In this document: positions 21,551-43,774 of the stretch, piece after piece
How positions within the stretch are numbered: position 1 is the stretch's first letter
Layout: the number at the start of each line of letters is the position of its first letter
IMG/VR virus record: IMGVR_UViG_3300046167_000554
Coordinates: 64,001-128,000 of that record
Length of the DNA stretch: 64,000 nt
Source: a virus
Reading direction: 5' to 3' (one strand)
The notes under the pieces: model-generated
The model's input: only the letters and a program-made list of their open reading frames with translations
Databases searched by the model: none
Told to the model about the DNA's origin: nothing
Position numbers and translations under genes: made by a program

Positions 21551-24500
21551 ATGCCTGAAAAGACAGACTTAAATATATCACCTTATTACGATGACTACTC
21601 AGAGGATAAGAACTTTCATAAGGTTCTTTATCGTGCTGGTCGTCCTATTCAAGCAAGAGAGTTAACTCAATCTCAATCAATTTTACAAAATCAAATTGAG
21701 AGATTTGGTGACCACATGTTTGAAGAGGGTTCTATTGTTCAAGGAGCTCAAACAGATGTCGACATGGAAATGTACTATGTCAAAGTCAAGAGTGCAAATC
21801 CGAATGATAGTGGAACTGCAACATCTGAGACTTATAGAACGTCTTTCCATGGTAAACTTGTCATCGGTCAAACTTCAGGAGTAGTTGCAAAGGTATTATC
21901 ATCAAGTGCAGAAACTTCAACAGATAAGATGACCTTGTTTGTTAAGTATATGAGACAGGGAACAGATTCTGCAAACTCATTTAAATTTACTGCAAACGAA
22001 GAACTACGTGAATGTCAAGTAGATTCAGGTGGAACATATTCAGAAGTATCAAACAATAACGAATTCCAAGTAGAAACTACAGCAAATGCACCTTGTGGTA
22101 TTGGTTCAATGTCAAAAATATCAGAAGGTATTATATATCTTAGGGGTTTCTTTGTCAAGGTTGATGCACAAGAATTAATACTAGAGAAGTATTCATTCAA
22201 ACCATCATATAGAATTGGTTTGACAATTACAGAAAGTATGGTAGACTCATCTTCTGATACCTCTTTACAAGATAATTCAACAGGTACATCAAACGAAAAC
22301 GCTGCTGGTGCAGATAGACTTAAAGTTGGATTAACACTTTCTAAGTTCACCATTACAGAAACTACAGATGCAAACTTTGTAGAACTTGCAAGAGTTAATC
22401 AAGGTGTCATTGAGATGAAGGTCAATAGACCTATGTACAATGCAATTGAAAACACACTTGCAAGAAGAACATTCGATGCAAATGGTGACTTTATTGTAAC
22501 ACAATTCACTCAATCAATGAGAGAACATTTAGATAACACTATTAACAGAGGGTTCTATCCTGCTAAAAATGGTGGAGATGAAAGTCAATTTGTTATGCAA
22601 ATATCGCCAGGTAAAGCATACGTTAGAGGTTATGAGATTGATAAGATTGGAACAACAACAGTTCCATTCCCAAAAGCAAGAACAACTAAGTCACTTGCAA
22701 ACACTAAGACACCTATTAGATTAGGAAACAAATTAAAAGTTAAAAATGCACACTCATTTCCCGAGTTTGGTAATGAGTCTTCAGGACAATCACAATCACC
22801 TTTCGGTGTTGTAAAGATTTATGATGCAGTTGTAGCTTCAGTAGGAACAGAGAATGCAAGTGGACATATTGGTTTTGCAAGAGTAAGAGATATTGACCAT
22901 AAGTCAGGAACTTCATCAAGTGGAGTATTTGCAAATAGTTCTATCTTTAACATGTACATGTTCGATATTAAGATGTTCACAAAACTTACTGGAACTGCAA
23001 GTGGAACAATCAATGTTGGTGATAAAGTAACAGGAAACGAAAGTAATGCAACTGGTATAGTTGCATATAAATCTAATAATGACCTTTATCTACATGACGT
23101 AATAGGTTCATTCTTAACTTCAGGTACAGAAGATTTAACATTTGGAAACTCAACAGGTAGTTTTGCAAACATATCTGCAGTAAGAAGTTATAATATTGAT
23201 AGAGCAAGGTCTCTATTCCAAGCACCAAAAGTCGGTGGTTCTGCACAAAAATTTACTGCAGACATTAGTTTAGATGCAGACAAAGTGTTGAGTGGAACAC
23301 TTAACATGACTCTTAATAGTCCAACTGTAACAGGTTTTGGAACAAGGTTCTCTGCAGAATTAAAAGAAGGAGATATCCTAGTTGATGGTGTTGGTAATGA
23401 GAGAATTATTCAGTCGTTCAATGCAGACTTTAGTGAGATTACCTTAACAGATGGTGCAGTTGCAACATACAGTGGTAATGTAACAAGAAGACGTGCAAAA
23501 CTAGATGACCAAGACCAAACTGCAAACATATTTGCATGGCCTAGAAACTGGGTTAAGACACATGATGCAGACTTTATAAAAGTAAGAAGACAACAAACAG
23601 AAACAATTTCATCTTCAGGTGCAATACAAATATCACAAACAGATGGTGCATTTGAAGCTAGAAATGCAGACAACTTTAGTATATCAGTTGTAGATGTAAC
23701 TGGTGCAACTTCACCAACACTAGGAAATGGTGACATACTAAACATAGAAGATTATACAAGTGCATCTCCTACAGAAAATGGAGATGGTCAGAACATTTCA
23801 ATCTCAGGATTTGGAGCTGCAAACGAAGATGTTATTCTTAAAGTAACATACTCTATTTTAATTGCAGACCCCGATGCAAGAAGTAAAGACCATAGAAAAG
23901 GAAGGGTTCTAAAAGTAAGTGGAGATAGAAGTGGTTCTTACACTGGTGTGTATGGTTCTGCATTTGCAGATAAAGAAATTACACTAGGTGTTGCAGACGT
24001 ATTTAAGATACATGCTATCTATGAAGGAACAGGGGGAACAACACCTCTTTCTCCTAACGCAACATTTGCTAATACAGTAGGAACGTTTGCAAACTATGAG
24101 ACAATCGTAGGACAAACATCAGATGCACGTGCAGTCATTATAGACTTTAACGCAGGTGCAACATCATATTACTATATGATATCAGGAGTATTTACCGAAG
24201 ATGAGTCTATTGTAGGACAAACTTCAGGTGCAACAGGAACAGTAGATAGTGTATCACAAGGTTCACCAAATATCAAAAACAGATACTTCTTTGACAATGG
24301 TCAAAGAGATGGTTACTATGACTTAGGTAAAATATCACTTAAGCCTGGCGAACCAGCACCTTCAAACTCTATTATTATAGTGTTTGATTACTTTGAAGCA
24401 GGAGCAGGTGACTTCTTTGACGTTGGTTCTTATGACGAGAGTCTTTATAAAGAGATTCCAGTTTACTCACCAAACAAAGTAGACTTGGGTGGATTAGAAC

Positions 24501-27500
24501 CCGATGGAACATTTGAACTTTCAGATTGTGTTGACTTTAGACCAGTTGCTGGTATTGTTCACAATGATACTGATTTTGGAACTGCACCTATGAATGTTGC
24601 AAGTCCAACCGACTTATCAACTGCAATTCAGTTTGCACCATTCGGATATGAAACTGGAACAAGTTTCGATAGTTCTAGAACAGGTATTTCACAAACTAAT
24701 GCATCAACACCCGATACACCTATCAATGGTTCAACAGTTCAAGGTGATATCACTTTCTATGTTGGAAGAATTGATAAACTATTCTTACATCAATCAGGTA
24801 TATTCCAAATAGCAACAGGGATACCAGCTTTATCTCCAACCAAACCAAAGGTTATTGATAATGCAATTGAACTATTCGAATTACAAATACCACCTTACAC
24901 TGCAAAACTTGACAGTATAAGAGTAAGGTCACAAGACCATAGACGATATACCATGAAGGATATCGGTAAGATAAACAACAGGGTTACTAACCTTGAAAGA
25001 GTTACATCTCTTTCTTTATTAGAAAAAGATACACAAACAAAACAGATACTAGATGCAGATGGATTCGATAGATTCAAGTCAGGTTTCTTAGTTGATAACT
25101 TTAGAGGTCATAAGATTGGTGATGTAAATCATCCCGACTATAGAGTTGCTATTGACACTAAACTAGGTGTACTAAGACCACAATCTTATTCACAATTCTT
25201 TGACATGACACTGAATACTGCATCATCTCAAAACTTTACACAAACTGGTGATTTAATCACCTTACCATATAGTGAAGTTAGTTATGTTAATCAAAGTAAA
25301 GCATCAAGACATATTAATGTTAACCCATACCATGTGTTTGCATTTATTGGAACTGTAAAGTTAACACCCGAATCAGATATTTGGAATGATAGTGAAAGAT
25401 TACCTGAAGTTAAAATTAACAGAGAAGGTAACTTTGATGCAGTCATGTCAGAAAATGCTAATGCAATGGGAACAGTTTGGAACTCATGGCAAACCACATG
25501 GGCAGGAGAACCTTCAGTAGTTTCATCAGAGGTATCTGCAACTTCTAATGGTTCATGGAGTGGAGACCCATCACAAGGTGGTGAATGGGTAGCAGGACTT
25601 GAGATTACTAGAGAGATTACAGAGACACCTGAAATACAAACAAGAACAGGTGTAACTACAAGTGTTGTAGAAGATATTGTTGAAACAAGAAACGATAGAA
25701 TTGTAAGTGTTGCACTTATACCTTTCATTCGTTCAAGAACGATTGAGATTGATGCAACAAACTTGAAACCAAATTCAAACCATTACTTCTACTTCGATAA
25801 TATTGCAGTAGACAAATATGTTAGACCACATAGTGCAACATATTCACAAGACAGTGGTGTAACAACAACATCATATTGTAAAACAGATGGTAATGGTAGA
25901 CTTAGAGCATTCTTTACAATACCTAATAATGATACAGAAAGGTTCCCAACAGGACAAAGAGAGTTAAGAGTAACATCTTCTTTCTATAACCTAAGTAACC
26001 CTGCGTCTAATGGTAGTGGAATGTATCAAGCACAAGGATTATTGCAATCATCACAAACAGAGATTACTGCTACAAGAAATGGTAGAGTTATTCTTGACAG
26101 AGTTAGGGGTGAGAGAACAATTAATAGAAGAGGTGAAAGACTTGCAACATCAACATTTGATGAGAATGCACCACCAATACCAGTTGACCAAACACCACCA
26201 ATTCTTGACCCAATTGATGAGTTACCACCAGTACCACCTAGAGGGCCACAATTACCACCACCACCGCCACCGCCACCACCAATCGTGCCACCAATATTAC
26301 CACCAGTAATTGATAGACCAGTGCCGATAGAACTACCAATCATAATAGACGATAGGGGCCCTAATGTCAGAGACTTCGTGTTAGTACCTGATGGAAGGTT
26401 TGTGAGTTCAAGATTAGAAAGAGGTTGGGGTGACCCACTTGCACAATCATTCTTGGTTGAAGCAGCGGGTGGAATGATGATGTCATCAATAGACATATTC
26501 TTCCAATCAAAAGACGCTAACTTACCAGTATCAGTAGATATAAGAAACATGGTAAATGGATATCCTGGCCAGACAATATTACCATTCTCAACAGTGACTA
26601 AAAATCCTGAAGATGTTAATGTCTCAGAAGATGGTGCAACTGCAACAACATTTACATTTGACTCACCAGTTCTTCTAGAAGAAGATTGTGAATATTGTTT
26701 CGTAGTATACTCAAACTCAAATGAATATGAGTGTTTCATATCTAGAATGGGTGAAACAGACCTTGCAACAAGTCAAACAATTAGTGGACAACCATACGCA
26801 GGTTCGTTGTTTATGTCTCAGAATGCATCCACATGGACTGCAGAACAGACTGATGACCTCAAGTTTAACATGAAGATTGCTAAATTTGATACATCTAAAA
26901 CCCCTGTATTATACTTTGAAAATAATGACTTGTCAAGTGCAAAATTACAAGAGAGTCCAATAGAAACATTTAGTGGACAAACATATGTTAAGGTATACAA
27001 CTATATGCATGGTATGTACAACACTGCATCTAATGTAACACTTTCGGGTGTAACAGGAGATAAGACAGGTTGTGTTATGACTATAGGAACACCTAGTGTA
27101 ACAGGAACACCTAATAATGGAACCTTTACGGGTAAAGCATCAACAGGTGGAACAGGAACAGGATTGACATTCGATATAACTGTAGTTGACAATGCAATAA
27201 CAAGTTGTACAATTGCAACTACTGGAAGTGGATATACAGCTGCAGACTCAATCACTATTACAGATTTTGATGGTGCAACTACAGCTGATGCAACTGTAAC
27301 AGTAAGTACTGTTGAAGACACATTAGGTGGAATACCAGTTAATGCAATTAACAAAACATTTACTACAATTGCAAATATGGGTATCGACTCATTCACTGTA
27401 GTACCCGACTTGTCACCATATAACCTTAAAACAAGTTATGCATCTGATGACTCAACATTGGGTGGTGGTGCAAATGTAATGTCAACACGAAACTATTACT

Positions 27501-28252
27501 TTGATGCAATTCATACAATGATACCAAATGTTCAATTAAAGAACACTAATATCTTTGTTGCAGTTAAGACAACCCCTATGAATTCACCTGAAGGGTCAAT
27601 CAGTGGAACAGTATATTCTAGAAGAACAAGTTCAGAGTTTATAACACTGAATGATAACGTGTTCTTTGATTCACCAAGTATTATTGCATCTCCAATTAAT
27701 GAAGTAAGTGAAATGTCAAGTACTAAATCATTTGAATGTGCAGTACAATTACAATCATACAACCCTAATTTATCCCCAATTATTGATACAGGGTCTATTG
27801 GTGCAATTGCAATTGCAAACAGACTAAACAACATAGATACCAGTGCAGATGTACCTACAGGAACCACGTATGTGAGTTCTAACGAACCCGAAGGAGATAA
27901 CAATGCAATGGTGTACGTCACACGTAAGGTGAACCTTAAAACACCTGCTAGTTCAATTAGAGTAACAGCAGATGTCTTTAGACCACCTACAACAGATGTG
28001 AAGTTTATGTATAAGATTATTAAGAACGATGAAGACACACCATTAGATGATATCGGTTTCTCATACTTTAATACAGATGGTTCACCCGATATATCAACAG
28101 AAGCAGATGCAAGAAACTTTAAAGAATATGAATTCACTGCAGATGATTTGCCTGAGTTTAGTTCATTCATTATTAAAATCGTAGGACAAGGAGAAAGTAC
28201 ATCAGTAGTACCATTGGTATCTGCATTGAGATGTATTGCACTTGCAACGTAA
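21551..28252 (+). CDS. Large virion structural protein (VrlC/DUF4815-like)
   Basis: LNISPYYDDY, QARELTQSQSILQNQ, GADRLK, RRYTMKDIG, DRFKSGFLVDNF, INVNPY, DPLAQSF. Confidence 0.8.
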   Translation: MPEKTDLNISPYYDDYSEDKNFHKVLYRAGRPIQARELTQSQSILQNQIERFGDHMFEEGSIVQGAQTDVDMEMYYVKVKSANPNDSGTATSETYRTSFHGKLVIGQTSGVVAKVLSSSAETSTDKMTLFVKYMRQGTDSANSFKFTANEELRECQVDSGGTYSEVSNNNEFQVETTANAPCGIGSMSKISEGIIYLRGFFVKVDAQELILEKYSFKPSYRIGLTITESMVDSSSDTSLQDNSTGTSNENAAGADRLKVGLTLSKFTITETTDANFVELARVNQGVIEMKVNRPMYNAIENTLARRTFDANGDFIVTQFTQSMREHLDNTINRGFYPAKNGGDESQFVMQISPGKAYVRGYEIDKIGTTTVPFPKARTTKSLANTKTPIRLGNKLKVKNAHSFPEFGNESSGQSQSPFGVVKIYDAVVASVGTENASGHIGFARVRDIDHKSGTSSSGVFANSSIFNMYMFDIKMFTKLTGTASGTINVGDKVTGNESNATGIVAYKSNNDLYLHDVIGSFLTSGTEDLTFGNSTGSFANISAVRSYNIDRARSLFQAPKVGGSAQKFTADISLDADKVLSGTLNMTLNSPTVTGFGTRFSAELKEGDILVDGVGNERIIQSFNADFSEITLTDGAVATYSGNVTRRRAKLDDQDQTANIFAWPRNWVKTHDADFIKVRRQQTETISSSGAIQISQTDGAFEARNADNFSISVVDVTGATSPTLGNGDILNIEDYTSASPTENGDGQNISISGFGAANEDVILKVTYSILIADPDARSKDHRKGRVLKVSGDRSGSYTGVYGSAFADKEITLGVADVFKIHAIYEGTGGTTPLSPNATFANTVGTFANYETIVGQTSDARAVIIDFNAGATSYYYMISGVFTEDESIVGQTSGATGTVDSVSQGSPNIKNRYFFDNGQRDGYYDLGKISLKPGEPAPSNSIIIVFDYFEAGAGDFFDVGSYDESLYKEIPVYSPNKVDLGGLEPDGTFELSDCVDFRPVAGIVHNDTDFGTAPMNVASPTDLSTAIQFAPFGYETGTSFDSSRTGISQTNASTPDTPINGSTVQGDITFYVGRIDKLFLHQSGIFQIATGIPALSPTKPKVIDNAIELFELQIPPYTAKLDSIRVRSQDHRRYTMKDIGKINNRVTNLERVTSLSLLEKDTQTKQILDADGFDRFKSGFLVDNFRGHKIGDVNHPDYRVAIDTKLGVLRPQSYSQFFDMTLNTASSQNFTQTGDLITLPYSEVSYVNQSKASRHINVNPYHVFAFIGTVKLTPESDIWNDSERLPEVKINREGNFDAVMSENANAMGTVWNSWQTTWAGEPSVVSSEVSATSNGSWSGDPSQGGEWVAGLEITREITETPEIQTRTGVTTSVVEDIVETRNDRIVSVALIPFIRSRTIEIDATNLKPNSNHYFYFDNIAVDKYVRPHSATYSQDSGVTTTSYCKTDGNGRLRAFFTIPNNDTERFPTGQRELRVTSSFYNLSNPASNGSGMYQAQGLLQSSQTEITATRNGRVILDRVRGERTINRRGERLATSTFDENAPPIPVDQTPPILDPIDELPPVPPRGPQLPPPPPPPPPIVPPILPPVIDRPVPIELPIIIDDRGPNVRDFVLVPDGRFVSSRLERGWGDPLAQSFLVEAAGGMMMSSIDIFFQSKDANLPVSVDIRNMVNGYPGQTILPFSTVTKNPEDVNVSEDGATATTFTFDSPVLLEEDCEYCFVVYSNSNEYECFISRMGETDLATSQTISGQPYAGSLFMSQNASTWTAEQTDDLKFNMKIAKFDTSKTPVLYFENNDLSSAKLQESPIETFSGQTYVKVYNYMHGMYNTASNVTLSGVTGDKTGCVMTIGTPSVTGTPNNGTFTGKASTGGTGTGLTFDITVVDNAITSCTIATTGSGYTAADSITITDFDGATTADATVTVSTVEDTLGGIPVNAINKTFTTIANMGIDSFTVVPDLSPYNLKTSYASDDSTLGGGANVMSTRNYYFDAIHTMIPNVQLKNTNIFVAVKTTPMNSPEGSISGTVYSRRTSSEFITLNDNVFFDSPSIIASPINEVSEMSSTKSFECAVQLQSYNPNLSPIIDTGSIGAIAIANRLNNIDTSADVPTGTTYVSSNEPEGDNNAMVYVTRKVNLKTPASSIRVTADVFRPPTTDVKFMYKIIKNDEDTPLDDIGFSYFNTDGSPDISTEADARNFKEYEFTADDLPEFSSFIIKIVGQGESTSVVPLVSALRCIALAT

Positions 28253-28458
28253 TGGGAGTAAAGGTAGACGGACACTCAAAACTAGAACGAGATGAGAGTT
28301 CACACGCAATAGTTAATACTGATATGGAACAGTATAGACTTGCAAAGAAACGAAAAGAAGTATTTCATAATCAAAAAAATGAAATAAATACATTAAAGGA
28401 AGAAGTATCTGAAATAAAAGGACTTCTTCAGAATATTTTAGGAAAATTAAATGGCTAA
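28231..28458 (+). CDS. Small coiled-coil hypothetical (likely start 28252)
   Basis: LERDESSHAIVNTD, EINTLKEEVSEIKGLL. Confidence 0.6.
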   Translation: MYCTCNVMGVKVDGHSKLERDESSHAIVNTDMEQYRLAKKRKEVFHNQKNEINTLKEEVSEIKGLLQNILGKLNG

Positions 28459-29704
28459 GACTGTAGACACATTCAGTACTATTGAAGACTTCAGAGTCAG
28501 GTATAACGAACTTGCAACTGATGTCGGAGATAAGTCGGGACTAAGAACTCAACAAACGGGTACTATTATTGATGCTGTAAATTCTATAGAAGATAAATCA
28601 TTCTTCTTCCAAGAGTTTATTTACAATGTAACATCATCACAAACAGTATTCAATGGAGACGATGCATTTGATAATTCCTTACTTTTCAGAAGAGATAGAA
28701 TTCAAGTATTCCATATAGATGGTGGAGTAAGTAAACACTTACTAGAGGGTAATGACTACTCTATTGCATCACCTGATGGAAATCTTCATAAAGAAATTCA
28801 ATTAAACGTAGCTGCAGAAAGTGGAGATAAACTAGTTGTTTACTCATTCACTGGTTCTTACTTAGGAACTGTTTCAAGTGGAACAGGTGCAGTTGGATAC
28901 TTCTCAGAAACATCTGCAAACACAATCTATAATAACAATGATAGTGGAATAATTTTAAATGGAACTTCAGTAGGAAGAACTACAGCACTTGAATCAGGTT
29001 ATGAAATACAATTAGCAGGTGAAACATACGTAGAAGATAACGTAACACTTGCAACAAGTAAGACACTTACTGCACCTACTTTGACTACAGGTGGTGCATC
29101 TATTACAGGAACAACTGGAACAGGATTTACAAACATAACATCCACATTGTTTAGTGGTAATGTTAATGGTACAACTGCAACCTTATCGGGTACAGTTACT
29201 GGTGGTTCTTTAACAGATGGTACTTTAACTTCTACAGGTGGTACTATTACTGGTGCAGCTTCTATTACATCTACAAAATTCGTAGGTGATGTCTATAAGG
29301 ATGATGGAACCACAAAGATTTTAGAAAACTCAACGGGTGCATTGACTGGTACAGTATCTAGTTTATCAAACCATGATACCGATGACCTTTCAGAAGGTAC
29401 TGCAAAATTCTTTACTGATGCAAGAGCAAGAAGTGCAATTAGTGTTGGTGGAGATTTAACATATAATAGTAGTACAGGTGTGATTTCCTTTACTCAAACT
29501 GAAGGTGATATCACTGCAATTACTACAAATAGTAGTAGTGGTTTGTCAGGTGGAGTCACAGTAGGAGCAGCTTCTTTGTCTGTAAATACATCGAATGGTG
29601 TGAAAAAAGTAAGTAATAATGTAGTTTTAGATTATGAGACTGTAAGTTCTGCACCAAGTAGTGTTGGTTCAACTTCAACTGGTCACTTATGGTTTGTGAT
29701 ATGA
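28451..29704 (+). CDS. Fibre/appendage protein ending in GHLWFV motif
   Basis: Thr/Gly-rich; TDDLSEG..FFTDARAR repeat; C-term SAPS..TGHLWFVI. Confidence 0.65.
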   Translation: MAKTVDTFSTIEDFRVRYNELATDVGDKSGLRTQQTGTIIDAVNSIEDKSFFFQEFIYNVTSSQTVFNGDDAFDNSLLFRRDRIQVFHIDGGVSKHLLEGNDYSIASPDGNLHKEIQLNVAAESGDKLVVYSFTGSYLGTVSSGTGAVGYFSETSANTIYNNNDSGIILNGTSVGRTTALESGYEIQLAGETYVEDNVTLATSKTLTAPTLTTGGASITGTTGTGFTNITSTLFSGNVNGTTATLSGTVTGGSLTDGTLTSTGGTITGAASITSTKFVGDVYKDDGTTKILENSTGALTGTVSSLSNHDTDDLSEGTAKFFTDARARSAISVGGDLTYNSSTGVISFTQTEGDITAITTNSSSGLSGGVTVGAASLSVNTSNGVKKVSNNVVLDYETVSSAPSSVGSTSTGHLWFVI

Positions 29705-29705
29705 T

Positions 29706-31013
29706 ATGTCAGACGAAATATATTTAAATACTGGTACAACGATACAACAGCCCTATCAAGCGCAAGGGCCTGCTAACGCACAACAACCCGTTATTGCACA
29801 ACAGGTTAGAAACTATACTGCTAATGCAAGACAACCTAGTGAGTATCAGACTCGTACACCATTTACATATAGAAATCCAAGTAATGCACGTCAACCTAGT
29901 ATAAGGAATACACAAAGTCCCTTTACATATGCAAGACAAGGTCAATCACCATTTACGTATAACTTTAGGTCACCTAGTACATATACAAGACAGGGTCAAA
30001 CACCATTTACATACAGTCATAGACAACCTATAACATATGCAAGACAGGGTCAAACACCATTTACGTATGATTATCAGTCACCTTCAACATATAGAACCCC
30101 TGTAAATCAACAAGAACCTAATATAAGGAGTAAACAATCTCCTTTTACATATGGTCATCCAGCAGCTGCCCAATCACCTTTTACATATAACTATAGAAGT
30201 CCGTTTACGTATCAAAGAACTGGTCAGTCACCATTTACATATCAAGCAACTGGGACAACACCAGTGATATACAGTTACCAACAACCTTTTCCGTATATTG
30301 CAAATGGACAGCAACCAAACATAAGGAATGCACAACAACCATATCCATATAGTACTACACAAGCATCTTCCCATCAGCAACCAAATTTAGCAAGTGGAAG
30401 ACAACCTTACATATATGCAGCGTACACTTATCACAATACTGGTTCTACAGGAACTACTGCCCCAGTATATCAAATAGATGTTAGTTCACAAGACCAAAAT
30501 GATGCGAATGCTTATATTTGGGTTAAAACTGTAGGAAGTAATTTAGAAGTATATGTATCTGCAAACTTCGACAATTATGCTGACTTTACATCAACAAGTG
30601 GTGGCAGTGGGACTATAAGTACTAACACTAATTATAAAGTTGCAACATTGGTAGATGGAGCTGGGTATAAAGTAAGATATACAGCAGGTAGTTACTATAA
30701 TATAACACAAGAGGGTGGTGAACCTACAGTAATAGGATTAGTACTAGCAAGTAATGTTCCAAACTCAACCAGTACAACTGGTGGTGTTACTATAGGAACA
30801 AACTCACTTTGGGGGTCAGGTAGTGTTCATTATGTACGTTCTAGAGTTCGTGCTTTGCCAGATGAAGGATTTGAAGGAATCGGAAGTGCTGGTGCGTCTG
30901 TAGATATAAATCTATTCTTTGATAAAACAGGAGCTACAACTATCTCATACCCAATTTCAATGATGTGTGAAACAGATTTCCCTGAAGAGGAAGAAGAGGA
31001 AGAAGGAGTATAA
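29706..31013 (+). CDS. Pro-delimited repeat protein A plus ~190 aa C-terminal beta domain
   Basis: Units FTYARQGQSP, FTYNFRSP, NIRNAQQP; acidic tail. Confidence 0.75.
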   Translation: MSDEIYLNTGTTIQQPYQAQGPANAQQPVIAQQVRNYTANARQPSEYQTRTPFTYRNPSNARQPSIRNTQSPFTYARQGQSPFTYNFRSPSTYTRQGQTPFTYSHRQPITYARQGQTPFTYDYQSPSTYRTPVNQQEPNIRSKQSPFTYGHPAAAQSPFTYNYRSPFTYQRTGQSPFTYQATGTTPVIYSYQQPFPYIANGQQPNIRNAQQPYPYSTTQASSHQQPNLASGRQPYIYAAYTYHNTGSTGTTAPVYQIDVSSQDQNDANAYIWVKTVGSNLEVYVSANFDNYADFTSTSGGSGTISTNTNYKVATLVDGAGYKVRYTAGSYYNITQEGGEPTVIGLVLASNVPNSTSTTGGVTIGTNSLWGSGSVHYVRSRVRALPDEGFEGIGSAGASVDINLFFDKTGATTISYPISMMCETDFPEEEEEEEGV

Positions 31014-31016
31014 ACC

Positions 31017-31838
31017 ATGCCTACAGGACAACAGCCATATATATACCAACACCAAATCGTGTTCCAACAGGTAACTATTACTGAGCTTCAAGGACAGTCT
31101 CCTTTTACTTATCAACATCAGTCTCCTTTTACTTATCAAAATTCAGGAAGAAATCCTATTGCTAATGTATCTGCACAACAACCTTTTCCGTATATTGCAA
31201 ATGGACAGCAACCTTATCCATATATTGCAAATGGACAAGAACCAAACATAAGGAATGCACAACAACAGTTCTTTTATCAAGACCAAAGGAATGCAAGACA
31301 ACCTATTATCTATCAACATAGGTCTCCACTTACATATAGAAATCCTGTTAATGCACAAAATCCTATAAGTGGAGTTAATGCACAACAACCTTACCCTTAC
31401 ATTGCAAATGGTCAAAGTCCATATATTGCAGATGCACAACAACCATATCCGTATACTGCAAATGCACAAAATCCAAGTATCGAATCTGCACAACAACCTT
31501 ATCCATATATTGCAAATGCAAGAAACCCTAGTACATATCAACATAGGTCTCCACTTACGTATAGGAATCCTGTATCGGGTCAACAACCTCATATTGTAAA
31601 TAAACAATCACCATTTTTCTATACAGGTTCTTACCAAGTAGCGTATGCATATAGAAGTCCATTCATTGCACAAGTGCAACAACCCTCAACTAGACCTGTA
31701 GGCCCAGTTGCAAAAGTAAAAGGAATATACCGAAATAATAACGGAACTGTAGAGAAAGTAAACCAAGTATATGTAAATGATGGTGGTTCTTTAGAAAAAA
31801 TTCATCAATCTGTACCTACTGCTCAGTTTCAGAAATAA
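31017..31838 (+). CDS. Pro-delimited repeat protein B (antiparallel complement of A)
   Basis: Units YPYIANGQEP, STYQHRSP; C-term KVKGIY..VEKVNQVYV. Confidence 0.75.
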   Translation: MPTGQQPYIYQHQIVFQQVTITELQGQSPFTYQHQSPFTYQNSGRNPIANVSAQQPFPYIANGQQPYPYIANGQEPNIRNAQQQFFYQDQRNARQPIIYQHRSPLTYRNPVNAQNPISGVNAQQPYPYIANGQSPYIADAQQPYPYTANAQNPSIESAQQPYPYIANARNPSTYQHRSPLTYRNPVSGQQPHIVNKQSPFFYTGSYQVAYAYRSPFIAQVQQPSTRPVGPVAKVKGIYRNNNGTVEKVNQVYVNDGGSLEKIHQSVPTAQFQK

Positions 31839-31856: not shown

Positions 31857-32189
31857 ATGGCTATACTTGCAAACTTATTCATCGACCAAGGCACCGACTT
31901 TTCTATTACTGTAGATGTAACAGATAGTAATGGTGAAATTTTAAATATGTCAGGATATTCTTCTGCTGGTCAAATTAGAAAGACTTATGAGTCTTCAACA
32001 GTAAGTGCAACATTCACCACTTCTATATCTGCAGCTGCTGGTCAAGTTACCTTATCTTTAAATGATACAGTAACATCAGCATTAGGTGCTGGAAGATATG
32101 TTTATGACCTAAACGTCACATCAAGTGGTGGAGTTACAACAAGAGTAGTTGAAGGACAAGCAATTGTAACGCCAGGTGTAACGAGGTAA
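31857..32189 (+). CDS. Small virion adaptor protein (BppU-N-like)
   Basis: NLFIDQGTDF, GQIRKTY, GRYVYDL, RVVEG..VTPGVT. Confidence 0.65.
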   Translation: MAILANLFIDQGTDFSITVDVTDSNGEILNMSGYSSAGQIRKTYESSTVSATFTTSISAAAGQVTLSLNDTVTSALGAGRYVYDLNVTSSGGVTTRVVEGQAIVTPGVTR

Positions 32190-38772: not shown

Positions 38773-39870
38773 ATGGCATCAGGTTCACAAAAAGTAAAAA
38801 CACCAACAGGTTGGAATTCAACCCAAGGTGCATGGGTAAAGACAGGTTCTTCCACATGGAAAGCAGTCGACCAAATTTATGTTAAAACACCTACAGGGTG
38901 GAATGATGCATCAGGTCAAGAATTAACTCAAATACCTTATCCGTATATTGCAAATGCACAAGAACCAAACATAAGGGATGCACAACAACCTTATCCGTAT
39001 ATTGCAAATGCACAAGAACCAAACATAAGGGATGCACAACAACCATACCCTTACATTGCAAATAATCAGCAACCAAACATAAGGGATGCACAACAACCTT
39101 ATCCTTATATAGCGAACGCAAGACAACCTTCTACATATCAACATAGAAGTCCATTTACTTACAGAAACCCAAGTAATGCAAGACAACCTAGTACGTATCA
39201 ACATAGAAGTCCATTTACGTATCAAAGAACTGGTCAAACACCTTTCACATATCAATATAGAAGTCCATTTACGTATGCTAGACAAGGTCAAACACCATTT
39301 ACGTATAACTATAGGTCACCTAGTACGTATGCAAGACAGGGTCAAACACCATTTACGTATAACTTTAGGTCACCTAGTACGTATGCAAGACAAGGTCAAA
39401 CACCTTTCACATACCAGTATAGAAGTCCCTTTACATATGCAAGACAGGGTCAAACACCATTTACGTATAACTATAGGTCTCCGTTCACTTACAGGAACCC
39501 TGTATCTGCACAACAACCTACTATTAAGAATGCACAGCAACCTACTATTAAGAGTGCTCAGCAACCTAATATAAGGTCAGCACAACAACCTAATATAAGG
39601 TCAGCACAAGAACCAAATATTAGGAATGCAAGACAACCAAATAACGCACAGAATCCATTTACGTTCCAAAACCCGTTTACATTCAATGCAAGACAACCAA
39701 ACAATGCAAGACAACCAAACAATGCAAGACAACCGAATAATGCAAGACAACCAAACAATGCAAGAAGTCCAAGTATTGCTCAACAGCCAGGCTCATATAT
39801 CGCATACTTCCAACAATCATATTTCTTTACATTTGGAAGTCCAAGTCAGTTCCCTGGCGAGGAACCTTAA
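38773..39870 (+). CDS. Pro-delimited repeat protein C
   Basis: N-term VKTPTGW/WKAVDQIYVK docking-type motif then 36 units of 6/8/10 aa. Confidence 0.8.
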   Translation: MASGSQKVKTPTGWNSTQGAWVKTGSSTWKAVDQIYVKTPTGWNDASGQELTQIPYPYIANAQEPNIRDAQQPYPYIANAQEPNIRDAQQPYPYIANNQQPNIRDAQQPYPYIANARQPSTYQHRSPFTYRNPSNARQPSTYQHRSPFTYQRTGQTPFTYQYRSPFTYARQGQTPFTYNYRSPSTYARQGQTPFTYNFRSPSTYARQGQTPFTYQYRSPFTYARQGQTPFTYNYRSPFTYRNPVSAQQPTIKNAQQPTIKSAQQPNIRSAQQPNIRSAQEPNIRNARQPNNAQNPFTFQNPFTFNARQPNNARQPNNARQPNNARQPNNARSPSIAQQPGSYIAYFQQSYFFTFGSPSQFPGEEP

Positions 39871-39880
39871 GGAGTAAATT

Positions 39881-40843
39881 ATGCCAATTGGATTTAGAGT
39901 CATACCATATCACGCACATGCAAGGACTTCTGTTAATGTACAGACGCCGTTCACTTTTCAAGCACCATTCACGTTTCAGGCACCCTTTACGTTTCAGGCA
40001 CCTTTTACGTTTCAGAACCCGTTCATTGCACAAGCAAGACAACCGAATAATGCAAGACAACCTTTTACGTTTCAGAACCCATTTACGTACAATTATAGAA
40101 GTCCTTATACGTACAACCATAGGTCACCATTTACGTACCAACATAGAAGTCCTTTTACGTATCAACATAGAAGTCCTTTTACGTATCAACATAGGTCACC
40201 ATTTACGTACAGAAGTCCTGTATCTGCAAGAGAACCAAACATAAGGTCAGCACAACAACCTTATCCGTATATTGCATCTGCACAAGAACCAAACATAAGG
40301 TCGGCACAACAACCTTATCCGTATATTGCTAACAATCAACAACCTACGATTAAGAATGCACAACAACCTTATCCGTATATTGCTAACAATCAACAACCTA
40401 ATATAAGGAATGCTCAACAACCTTATCCGTATATTGCAAATGCACAAGAACCTAATATTAGGTCAGCACAGCAACCTTATCCGTATATTGCTAATGCACA
40501 AGAACCTAATATTAGAAACAATCAAGCACCATTTACATACCAAAACCCTGTAAATGGACAAGAACCTAATATTAGAAACGCTCAGACTCCGTTTACGTAT
40601 CAAAGAACTGGTCAAACACCATTTACTTACCAGTATAGAAGTCCTTCTACTTATGCAAGACAGGGTCAGACTCCGTTTACGTATCAACATAGAAGTCCGT
40701 TCACATATCAAAGAACTGGTCAGACTCCATTTACGTATCAACATAGAAGTCCATTCACGTATGCAAGACAGGGTCAAACCCCCGAAGCAAGATGGGATGG
40801 AGTTGGTTCACAACAGTGGCCTGCAACACCTATTAGTGGATAG
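39881..40843 (+). CDS. Pro-delimited repeat protein D (antiparallel complement of C)
   Basis: AGGAG RBS; 36 units mirroring C. Confidence 0.8.
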   Translation: MPIGFRVIPYHAHARTSVNVQTPFTFQAPFTFQAPFTFQAPFTFQNPFIAQARQPNNARQPFTFQNPFTYNYRSPYTYNHRSPFTYQHRSPFTYQHRSPFTYQHRSPFTYRSPVSAREPNIRSAQQPYPYIASAQEPNIRSAQQPYPYIANNQQPTIKNAQQPYPYIANNQQPNIRNAQQPYPYIANAQEPNIRSAQQPYPYIANAQEPNIRNNQAPFTYQNPVNGQEPNIRNAQTPFTYQRTGQTPFTYQYRSPSTYARQGQTPFTYQHRSPFTYQRTGQTPFTYQHRSPFTYARQGQTPEARWDGVGSQQWPATPISG

Positions 40844-40902: not shown

Positions 40903-42477
40903 ATGGAACATATTGAATCATTAGAAGACCTAAAACAGGTAGTAAAACCAAATCAAAACTATAGGGAAAAATCTTTCCATATTGGTAATTTCGATTTAAA
41001 AAGAGAAAAGACTGAAAAAGAAGAAGAGACTTTAAGTATGTTAGAGTACCTTTTTAATGAAATATGTCCACCATTAAAATATTTCACTTGGGGTGATTTT
41101 TTAGAACAAAGAAAGAAAGACAAATTTACGGGTTTCAATGGTTTACAGAACCAATCTTCTACCTACCACTACTTCTTACCACATGGTTATACTGCAGAGG
41201 TAAGACCCGAAAAGGTGACAAGAGGTCATGCTGGTATGGATATGAAGAATTTAGAAGGCTATATTGATATTAGAGACATTGCAAATTGGGAAGTTATTGA
41301 AGGTGGAAAGGATAAAGACCATCCACATGCATATGAAAGTCTTTCCTCAATGTATTACCATAGTGCAAAAGCACATTGGATTATACAAGACATCCAAAAG
41401 AATGGACTAATACATCCTATTCAAGGTATAACAAAGGAAAGTGGAGACAAGTTTGGATTTGCAATTCATCCAGGCTCTGTTCGTTCAGGATGTTTTGAAG
41501 AGATGGAAGACCCATCTATGGAAGTAATGATATGGGACAAACATGATGTCATTACTGGTATTGAACCAATGACATTAAATGATGCACTTGAGTTTTGGAA
41601 AAATAGATTAGAAGAACAGGATGCAGATGTATACAACGTATCCTTTATGTTCAATGAAGGTCATTTAGAGTTCCAACACGACCTATCTAATTTAAATTTC
41701 AGACCAAAGGTACATGAGTTCAATAAGAAGGTACATGAACTTTCCAAAGGTAAACCCATCAATATTTACATTGGATATGATAGTAGACACACTACATTAC
41801 CTGAAATTAATAAACATTCTATACTCACCAGTATTAAAAGGGGTCTAGGTAATGGTTGGTTTCATGACCAAGTCAGATGGGAACCTGAGATTAAGTTCCT
41901 TGACAAATCTAAAATTCCCGAGTATAATAGAGAGTATGCAAATCAATCTACTGAGTTTACATATAGTAGATTTCTAATTCCTTACCTAGAAAACTATGAA
42001 GGGTTTAGTATATTCTTAGATGATGATTTCATCTTTGAGAAAAGTATACTACCAATGTTCTATTATCTAAATCCTGATGATGCAGTTGCATGTGTAAAGT
42101 ATCCACATTACGAACATGATACAACTAAATTTGATGGAGAAGTCAACATAGATTATCCATGTAAGTTGTGGTCAAGTCTAATGGTGTTTAATAATGGACA
42201 TGAAGATTGCAAGAAACTAACACCCGAAGTTGTTAACACTTGGACTGGAAAACAGTTACATCAGTTTGAGTGGACAGATAAGATTAGTGAGATACCTCAA
42301 AAATATGTCTTTGTAGAGGGTTATGATGACCCCAAAGAGAAGTGGGATTTTACTGCAATTCACTATACAAGAGGTGGCCCATGGGTAGAAGGTATGGATT
42401 TTAGTGGTATAAATAATTTGGAACACTATAATAAGTGGTTAAACAAACATAAGAACGAGGTAATTAATAATGAATAG
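40903..42477 (+). CDS. Two-domain protein: ParB/Srx-like N-domain + GT-A (GT8-like) glycosyltransferase
   Basis: IYIGYDSR, STEFTYSRFLIPYL, FLDDDF (DxD), YPCKLWSSLMVFN, LHQFEW, IHYTRGGPW. Confidence 0.8.
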   Translation: MEHIESLEDLKQVVKPNQNYREKSFHIGNFDLKREKTEKEEETLSMLEYLFNEICPPLKYFTWGDFLEQRKKDKFTGFNGLQNQSSTYHYFLPHGYTAEVRPEKVTRGHAGMDMKNLEGYIDIRDIANWEVIEGGKDKDHPHAYESLSSMYYHSAKAHWIIQDIQKNGLIHPIQGITKESGDKFGFAIHPGSVRSGCFEEMEDPSMEVMIWDKHDVITGIEPMTLNDALEFWKNRLEEQDADVYNVSFMFNEGHLEFQHDLSNLNFRPKVHEFNKKVHELSKGKPINIYIGYDSRHTTLPEINKHSILTSIKRGLGNGWFHDQVRWEPEIKFLDKSKIPEYNREYANQSTEFTYSRFLIPYLENYEGFSIFLDDDFIFEKSILPMFYYLNPDDAVACVKYPHYEHDTTKFDGEVNIDYPCKLWSSLMVFNNGHEDCKKLTPEVVNTWTGKQLHQFEWTDKISEIPQKYVFVEGYDDPKEKWDFTAIHYTRGGPWVEGMDFSGINNLEHYNKWLNKHKNEVINNE

Positions 42478-43048: not shown

Positions 43049-43774
43049 GTGAAGATACATTATGTAACTGAACCATTCAAGTTATCAGAAATACCTTTAA
43101 AGGATGTTTATGTCTTTGATGATTTCTTATCTTCAGAAATGCATCGTGCAATAGATTCACATATATATCGTTCAAGTATATGGTCTAAGACAAATCAAGT
43201 TAGAGGAGATAGTCCTACTGGGTTAGCACATCATAGTTTTTGGGGTGCAACATATTTTCGTGGAGTAGAAGGTGGAAGTAAGAAAGTAGTTGATAATGAT
43301 ATGAATCCAAGGGATACTTATCTTGCACAATGGTTTAATAGAAAGATACAAACCGACTTTGGATTTCAGTGGGTCAGATTTCAATACATGGGACTGAATT
43401 CACAAACACAAGGTCTTCAAGGAACAACACATGCAGATTGTTCACCTGAAGATGAGTGGAATCTTTCATTTCTTTACTATACCAATAAATTTTGGAATAA
43501 GGAATGGGGTGGTTCATTGAGATTTTACGATGAAATGCAACAAGGAATTGATGGTAGAGATGAACATATTAAAAATCATCAAATTGGTGAAGTAGAGTTT
43601 AAACCCAACAGACTGTTAATGTTTGACGGAAGAATTCCACATGGTGCAGATGCACCTTCTCCTAAAGCAAGATATATGGATAGAAAATCCATTGTTCTTA
43701 GAGGAGACGAAATAAGATTAATAAAAGATACAAGTGAGTGGTTTCATGCCAACGATAGAATTTACAACATTTAA
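43049..43774 (+). CDS. 2OG-Fe(II) oxygenase (prolyl-hydroxylase-like)
   Basis: HAD..LYY..W..EWGGSL.F..FKPNRLLMFDG.IPH..R. Confidence 0.82.
   Translation: MKIHYVTEPFKLSEIPLKDVYVFDDFLSSEMHRAIDSHIYRSSIWSKTNQVRGDSPTGLAHHSFWGATYFRGVEGGSKKVVDNDMNPRDTYLAQWFNRKIQTDFGFQWVRFQYMGLNSQTQGLQGTTHADCSPEDEWNLSFLYYTNKFWNKEWGGSLRFYDEMQQGIDGRDEHIKNHQIGEVEFKPNRLLMFDGRIPHGADAPSPKARYMDRKSIVLRGDEIRLIKDTSEWFHANDRIYNI

Follow-up and report, generated by a model that had tools for sequence, protein, structure and literature searches.

The needle of bacteriophage T4 gp37 and the stalk of streptococcal antigen I/II are the described structures closest to the pair of phage proteins analyzed here, the former in topology and the latter in logic. 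In the gp37 needle, the chains run out to a receptor-binding head and return (PMC9659904, PMC7291167). In the antigen I/II stalk, alpha-helical Ala-rich repeats are paired with polyproline-II (PPII) Pro-rich repeats, and a variable domain is located at the tip (PMC6586375). Among repetitive fibres, phage collagen-repeat modules occur in the host-recognition clusters of marine phages (PMC7029224). Our literature search for a precedent of a two-gene, mirror-complementary fibre design found none.

We analyzed a stretch of 64,000 nucleotides (the window) from an IMG/VR virus record of 153.5 kb, with a completeness of about 81%, that belongs to an uncultured marine myophage of the T4-like group. 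Two neighbouring genes in the window, A and B, encode arrays of short Pro-delimited units of two classes, and the A array read forwards mirrors the B array read backwards. Like the gp37 needle, A and B belong to a T4-like phage and, judging from their sequences, would form antiparallel limbs that run to and from a distal domain, with both segment ends proximal. Unlike gp37, they showed no sequence similarity to any solved chain, and neither array contained an HxH motif, whereas iron-binding His-x-His motifs lie along the needle. The gp37 needle is a homotrimer giving six strands; the A/B arrays differ from it in comprising about 200 residues per limb, in being built from Pro-delimited units of two classes, and in having the hairpin split into two genes. 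Like antigen I/II, A and B would form a fold-back stalk in which two repeat classes pair and a variable domain is placed at the far end. However, antigen I/II is one chain with one class per limb, whereas A and B interleave both classes in both chains. The antigen I/II repeats are 82 and 39 residues long and adopt helix and PPII conformations; the A/B units, in contrast, have 6–10 residues, a two-residue covariation period, and no Pfam matches. Neither of the two systems shares sequence, unit structure, or the two-gene split with A/B. As in antiparallel heterodimeric coiled coils of the leucine-zipper type, a short repeating sequence code would set partner and register in A/B, but this code uses unit length besides residue class. 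An alpha-helical coiled coil itself, with heptads and a Pro-free helix, was rejected, since Pro occurred every 6–10 residues throughout both arrays. With collagen-like heterotrimers and phage collagen-repeat fibres, A and B would have in common a Pro-rich, repetitive, and elongated character, but A and B have units of 6, 8, and 10 residues and would not run parallel. A collagen-like triple helix was likewise rejected, because nowhere in the arrays did three or more G-x-x repeats occur in succession, and at most 4% of the residues were Gly.

Materials and methods

The arrays were cut into blocks by splitting after each Pro, with two-residue YP or FP pieces merged with the next unit; three boundaries in B that had Gln or Ser in place of Pro were also split. 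Units with an aromatic residue at position 3 and a residue other than Pro at position 2 (the FTY type) were assigned to class T, and all other units (the xNAQQP type, characterized by Asn, Ala, and Gln and N-terminally extended by NI or YPYI) to class N. Relatives were collected by scanning IMG/VR with B, with D (a protein of the second pair, C/D, in the same genome), and with a single-chain form, which yielded 181 loci. Covariation was analyzed in matched T and N units of equal length; as the control, the N units of each protein pair were reassigned at random to the T units of that pair.

Results

The window contained a gene for a 2233-aa homologue of VrlC (21551–28252), whose best matches were from pelagibacter, methylophilales, and cyanobacterial T4-like myophages. 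A gp8-like baseplate gene was located upstream of it and several fibre-like genes downstream. In pelagimyophages, the stretch between VrlC and gp14 is the "host recognition cluster" (PMC7029224), and the stretch of the window that holds A and B corresponds to this cluster. All of the genes discussed here are encoded on the + strand and tightly packed. A fibre-like gene of 417 aa with the C-terminal motif GHLWFVI (28451–29704) ends 1 nt before the ATG of A. Gene A, the first limb (29706–31013), is an open reading frame of 435 aa without a Pfam or PHROG family. It consists of a conserved N-terminal cap that starts with MSDEIY and lies outside the paired array (residues 1–28; 29706–29789), the array of Pro-delimited 6-, 8-, and 10-residue units (residues 29–234; 29790–30407), and a non-repeat C-terminal domain with an acidic tail at its end (residues 235–435; 30408–31010). 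The last of these agrees with the extra C-terminal domain that had been described in A from the sequence alone. Gene B, the second limb (31017–31838), is an open reading frame of 273 aa. Its ATG is placed 3 nt past the stop of A, and a GGAG ribosome-binding site lies within the acidic-tail codons of A. The array of B (residues 8–215; 31038–31661) is followed by a conserved C-terminal domain containing KIHQ (residues 216–273; 31662–31835). Directly downstream is an LtfC-like gene of 110 aa (31857–32189), which was identified by matches to phrog_3304 and phrog_1084, a weak match to PF23926, and synteny. The LtfC-like gene was always found directly downstream of A/B-type modules, and a gene with the GHLWFVI C-terminal motif preceded nearly all A/B-type pairs and every single-chain form described below.

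The second pair of the genome, C/D (38773–40843), has another unit order and was used for comparing cognate with non-cognate pairs. In the metagenomic loci, practically all C/D-type pairs were directly followed by a gene for a 524-aa protein with a match to phrog_28018 and a weak GT8 match (40903–42477 in the window). Two 2OG-Fe(II) oxygenase genes, one with a match to PF13640 and a weak FlmC-like match (43049–43774) and one matching PF13759/TIGR02466 (44620–45327), were located near the genes of Pro-punctuated repeats. Such oxygenase genes are common in marine T4-like phages, and hydroxylation of the Pro-punctuated arrays by the nearby enzymes is a possibility.

When residues 29–234 of A were read forwards against residues 215–8 of B read backwards, 24 blocks were matched. 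The lengths were equal in 22 of them and differed by one residue (8 versus 9) in the other two, and the classes were opposite in 23/24. All of the A/B unit pairs listed in the sequence-only reading were reproduced, among them the 16/16 and 12/12 blocks, the tandem pair of 10-mers, the terminal 14+8 that faces 22, and both 8-versus-9 mismatches. The class-aware score was 27.5 for the mirror alignment and 10 for the forward alignment; the non-cognate combinations A with D and C with B gave 18 and 16.5, respectively. With the unit order of B shuffled 1000 times, the score was 6.3 ± 1.5 with a maximum of 14.5, and no shuffle reached 27.5 (z = 14). The class-aware matching therefore stood above the shuffled controls against which the same reading had proposed that it be judged. 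The C/D pair gave 70 for the mirror and 22 for the forward alignment, and the difference in unit order between A/B and C/D that had been pointed out was confirmed.

Length alone hardly separated the two directions in A/B (28 for the mirror versus 24 for the forward alignment), because the central 13-unit length series is a palindrome (8, 6, 6, 8, 10, 8, 10, 8, 10, 8, 6, 6, 8), and for this reason the class-aware score was needed. The ungapped coincidence of Pro positions separated the directions in C/D but not in A/B, in which two one-residue offsets and the internal Pro of YP-type 10-mers interfere with it. A conserved module close to the probable attachment end, T8-T6-N6-N8, is its own mirror complement, like a palindromic site, and is therefore present in both partners (A 45–72, 29838–29921; B 172–199, 31530–31613). 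This module could in principle pair with itself.

As a DNA-level origin of the mirror, inverted repeats and the possibility that one class is encoded antisense to the other, or in a shifted frame of it, were considered and rejected, since only chance matches of 14–20 nt were found. Between genes A and B in particular, there were no inverted repeats beyond such matches, which placed the mirror at the protein level only. Because A and B are on the same strand, duplication or inversion cannot yield a protein-level mirror of opposite classes. The arrays are in part young tandem DNA repeats, with a 54-nt unit present 3.1 times in A and mirrored by a 54-nt unit present 2.6 times in B; balanced copy numbers must therefore be kept by selection.

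Among the 181 loci, there were 69 distinct adjacent pairs, 27 of the A/B type and 42 of the C/D type. The mirror rule also held, with up to 69 matched units, in 18 further pairs with approximately 300–530 nt between the genes. These spaced pairs include L119 (3851–7985), L113, L109, L099, and L104, and the gap possibly holds a small open reading frame. A total of 87 distinct pairs from marine viral contigs thus followed the rule with very different unit orders and with arrays of approximately 20 to 70 units, and the mirror score was higher than the forward score and the shuffles in nearly all pairs. The matched units of equal length in the 69 adjacent pairs numbered 1891, and 1759 of them (93%) were of opposite class, as against approximately 60% in non-cognate pairs. 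Because related pairs share ancestry, z-scores calculated from pooled units exaggerate how many events were independent. The cognate partner was ranked first of 63 candidates for 52 of 63 proteins. The sequence-only reading had suggested that distinct barcodes keep A–B and C–D orthogonal in one cell. In 14 genomes with two modules, the cognate score exceeded the cross score in 27 of 28 comparisons, which agrees with such barcodes at the level of sequence, but runs of 8–9 complementary units were still shared by non-cognate pairs. In a group of about eight A/B-type pairs (L100, L102, L126, L129, L135, and L140 among them; proteins of approximately 414 and 302 aa), the arrays were degenerate and irregular and the mirror match was partial and barely above shuffles; this group may represent a decaying or differently built version.

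Changes in one gene were compensated in the other. In the locus L078, whose B protein is 91% identical, 12+8 stands against 20 where the window pair has 14+8 against 22, and the two-residue deletion in A of L078 was also present in P0008. In a 90%-identical relative of C/D, an extra 10+8 T module in the first gene was mirrored by an extra 10+8 N module in the second. A/B orthologues differed in unit order and even in class, and the partner was always flipped to match; in L144, for example, N-type 10- and 8-residue units were found where A of the window has T-type units, and the partner was flipped accordingly.

Covariation was also detected within matched units. None of 200 shuffles reached the observed value, and shared ancestry, which inflates the z-scores of this analysis, does not create the direction of the signal. 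In 8-mers, T1 was coupled with N5 and N7, and T5 and T7 with N1 and N3; 74% of the excess information was between odd positions, and the weighted position correlation was -0.54. The 6-mers and 10-mers showed the same sense, with T1 coupled to the C-terminal portion of the N unit. His or Tyr at T5 occurred with Arg at N3 and Asn at N1, and Asn or Ala at T5 with Ala at N3 and Tyr at N1; Phe at T1 occurred with Ala or Gly at N5, and Ser at T1 with Asn or Arg. Because the unit pairs were chosen by length only, the covariation is an independent sign of antiparallel chains. Its register, in which position i faces L-i, places each Pro opposite the Pro of the partner, and its two-residue period suggests that the strands would be extended.

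In at least 15 loci, a single open reading frame of 445–611 aa replaced the pair, in the same slot as A/B between the GHLWFVI-ending fibre gene and the 110-aa LtfC-like gene. These single-chain forms (e.g. L158, L145, L111, L164, and L168) have an A-like N-terminus and a B-like C-terminus. In L158/L093, L159/L096, L145, L111, L143, and L132, the N-terminal half was the mirror complement of the C-terminal half over 13–17 units. In L164 (2501–4120), six 7-mers and two 9-mers were mirrored by two 9-mers and six 7-mers, and L168 (2501–4078) had five and five 7-mers where L164 has six and six. The units of L164 and L168 are of a third type, 7 or 9 residues long, Ala-rich, and ending in Pro, which is outside the T and N classes. 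Such 7- and 9-residue units are at odds with a simple model in which Pro recurs at an even spacing and so always occupies the same kind of beta site. A single chain with mirror halves must fold back on itself; from these forms, A/B would be a hairpin split at its turn, in which A has gained a further domain of 200 residues. Together with the 27 A/B-type, 42 C/D-type, and 18 gapped pairs, the compensating indels, and the covariation, these fold-back forms bore out the earlier view of A/B as an independent replicate of the mirror rule.

The conserved parts of the pair were the N-terminus of A and the last 58 residues of B, which come to the same end when the chains are antiparallel. Residues 1–28 of A contained invariant or near-invariant columns in alignment A1, and the same N-terminus was found in single-chain forms; residues 226–269 of B contained many invariant columns in alignment A2, and this domain also forms the C-terminus of single-chain forms. 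A Lys/Val/Tyr-rich motif (KVK...YV) was observed in the N-terminus of C (residues 1–55; 38773–38937) and in the C-terminus of B (residues 216–273; 31662–31835), both of which lie, in the antiparallel geometry, at the end formed by the N-terminus of the first gene product and the C-terminus of the second.

The C-terminal domain of A is at the opposite end from the conserved parts. For residues 235–435, a word search gave only 11 homologues, and 1.8 billion representatives contained 4 clusters; A/B orthologues carried unrelated sequences of 100–300 residues at this position. These features fit a variable distal tip, and the suggestion that this domain is a candidate receptor-binding tip fits its position at the non-conserved end, its swapping in orthologues, and its rarity. 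AF2 prediction of residues 235–435 as a single sequence gave a pLDDT of 33. Close relatives of A (83% identical over 432 residues) had about 150 further residues forming a Hint/intein-like module, with Cys as its first residue after an acidic linker (P0008, P0009, L101:993–2750, and L097:2268–3953; compare 30966–31013 in the window). L101 matched PF05203 above the cut-off, and many family members carried PF14890 or PF14623. A of the window ends within the acidic linker, close to the site at which self-cleavage would be expected. This arrangement suggests that the Hint-like module may be a removable, self-cleaving assembly module, which would have been lost in the window phage.

Neither A nor B matched a family in Pfam, PHROG, or NCBIfam, and when 50,697 GenBank phage records were searched with tblastn, neither of them was matched and C had a single marginal hit. 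When alignments A2 and A3 were used as profiles against the PDB sequences, no relevant match was obtained, and the ESM Atlas contained only unnamed viral clusters, with no model. A separate profile search gave at least 490 protein clusters, all of them unnamed, annotated as "hypothetical", and from marine metagenomes. Cementoin (PF10511) was considered and rejected; A and B did not match it, and D alone gave a borderline 17-residue match (28.1 bits versus a cut-off of 27), which is best explained by composition. Complex prediction for B with residues 1–262 of A, using alignments built here, gave a score of 0.05, which is neither for nor against binding. AF2 prediction of the single-chain form L158 with a 15-row alignment gave a pLDDT of 30 and left the arrays unstructured; beta structure was assigned, with low confidence, to no more than the N-terminal strand and the C-terminal domain.

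Discussion

At the level of sequence, the mirror complementarity of A and B, its co-variation across relatives, and the fold-back topology are established. We propose that A and B form a single elongated structure, of which each protein is one limb and in which the limbs run antiparallel alongside each other. Every Pro-delimited block of A would face a block of equal length and opposite class in B, with the prolines opposite each other, and the pair would be the split form of a hairpin protein that is made as a single chain in related phages. The attachment end would probably consist of the N-terminus of A and the C-terminal domain of B, which form the conserved end, and the variable C-terminal domain of A would be placed at the far end, where the single-chain forms turn. 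The structure is most likely a virion fibre, because its genes are in the tail-fibre (host-recognition) cluster of a T4-like myophage. We estimate the probability of this whole explanation at about three in four. Antiparallel pairing of A with B is, by itself, highly probable, and the fibre role is likely. That the two chains form an extended beta-ribbon with Pro facing Pro has about an even chance. A trimeric assembly of hairpins resembling the T4 gp37 needle is a guess, which we consider rather doubtful.

The explanation that best survives beside the split-hairpin fibre retains the antiparallel pairing of A and B but assigns to the product the role of an assembly scaffold, a length ruler, or a head or neck decoration rather than that of a host-recognition fibre. 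A tip domain without a recognizable binding fold would be in keeping with such a product, and the putatively self-removing Hint-like module of relatives would also agree with a function in assembly. However, the conserved order between the fibre-like gene and the LtfC-like gene, inside the fibre cluster, and the swapping of the far-end domain among orthologues, as is usual for receptor-binding parts, argue against it, and we regard a non-fibre role as improbable.

It is less probable again that A and B make no mutual contact and both lie along a third partner that is two-fold symmetric or repetitive, such as the upstream fibre shaft, so that the mirror would reflect a shared template. Each pair does always follow a particular fibre gene, as such a template would require, but a shared template predicts neither the opposite classes nor the residue-level coupling between matched A-type and B-type units, and the arrays range from about 20 to about 70 units with no matching change in the upstream gene.

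Among the phage fibres that are known, almost all are parallel homotrimers, and this, with the near equality of the length-only forward and mirror scores (24 versus 28), counts in favour of A and B each forming its own parallel homo-oligomeric fibre, the mirror being a by-product of repeat evolution. When class was included, the forward score fell to 10 against 27.5. Compensating indels and class flips in the partner gene, antiparallel within-unit covariation, the mirror halves of single-chain forms, and the lack of a DNA mechanism for a protein-level mirror also contradict separate homo-oligomers, which we therefore consider very unlikely. The slightest probability falls to intrinsically disordered, low-complexity spacers with no defined partner, for which the richness of the arrays in Gln, Pro, Tyr, and Asn and the failure of AF2 and the complex predictor to give a confident structure can be cited, but which leave unexplained the exact length match, the opposite classes, the compensating indels, and the position-specific covariation between two genes.

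If A and B form the antiparallel split hairpin, the matching may amount to a natural, sequence-programmable pairing code for long antiparallel two-chain ribbons, a proposal for and against which we see equal odds. Unit length would specify the register and class the complementarity. A residue sub-code would be superimposed, with pairings such as a His or Tyr at T5 opposite an Arg at N3, or a Phe at T1 opposite a small residue at N5. Distinct unit orders would then prevent mispairing among several fibres within the same infected cell, in analogy to base pairing in nucleic acids.

If the chains pair as their sequences imply, A and B would represent a new way of building a phage fibre and a rare natural case of a long protein-protein interface whose sequence directly reveals which chains pair and in what register. 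The balanced repeat expansions across two genes would be explained, and the units would offer a testable, and possibly designable, hetero-specific zipper of the beta type. Because structure predictors currently fail on these proteins, the family is a useful target for experimental structure work. For the phages themselves, the pairing would give a role to a large unnamed family (at least 490 "hypothetical" clusters) in the host-recognition region of abundant marine T4-like phages.
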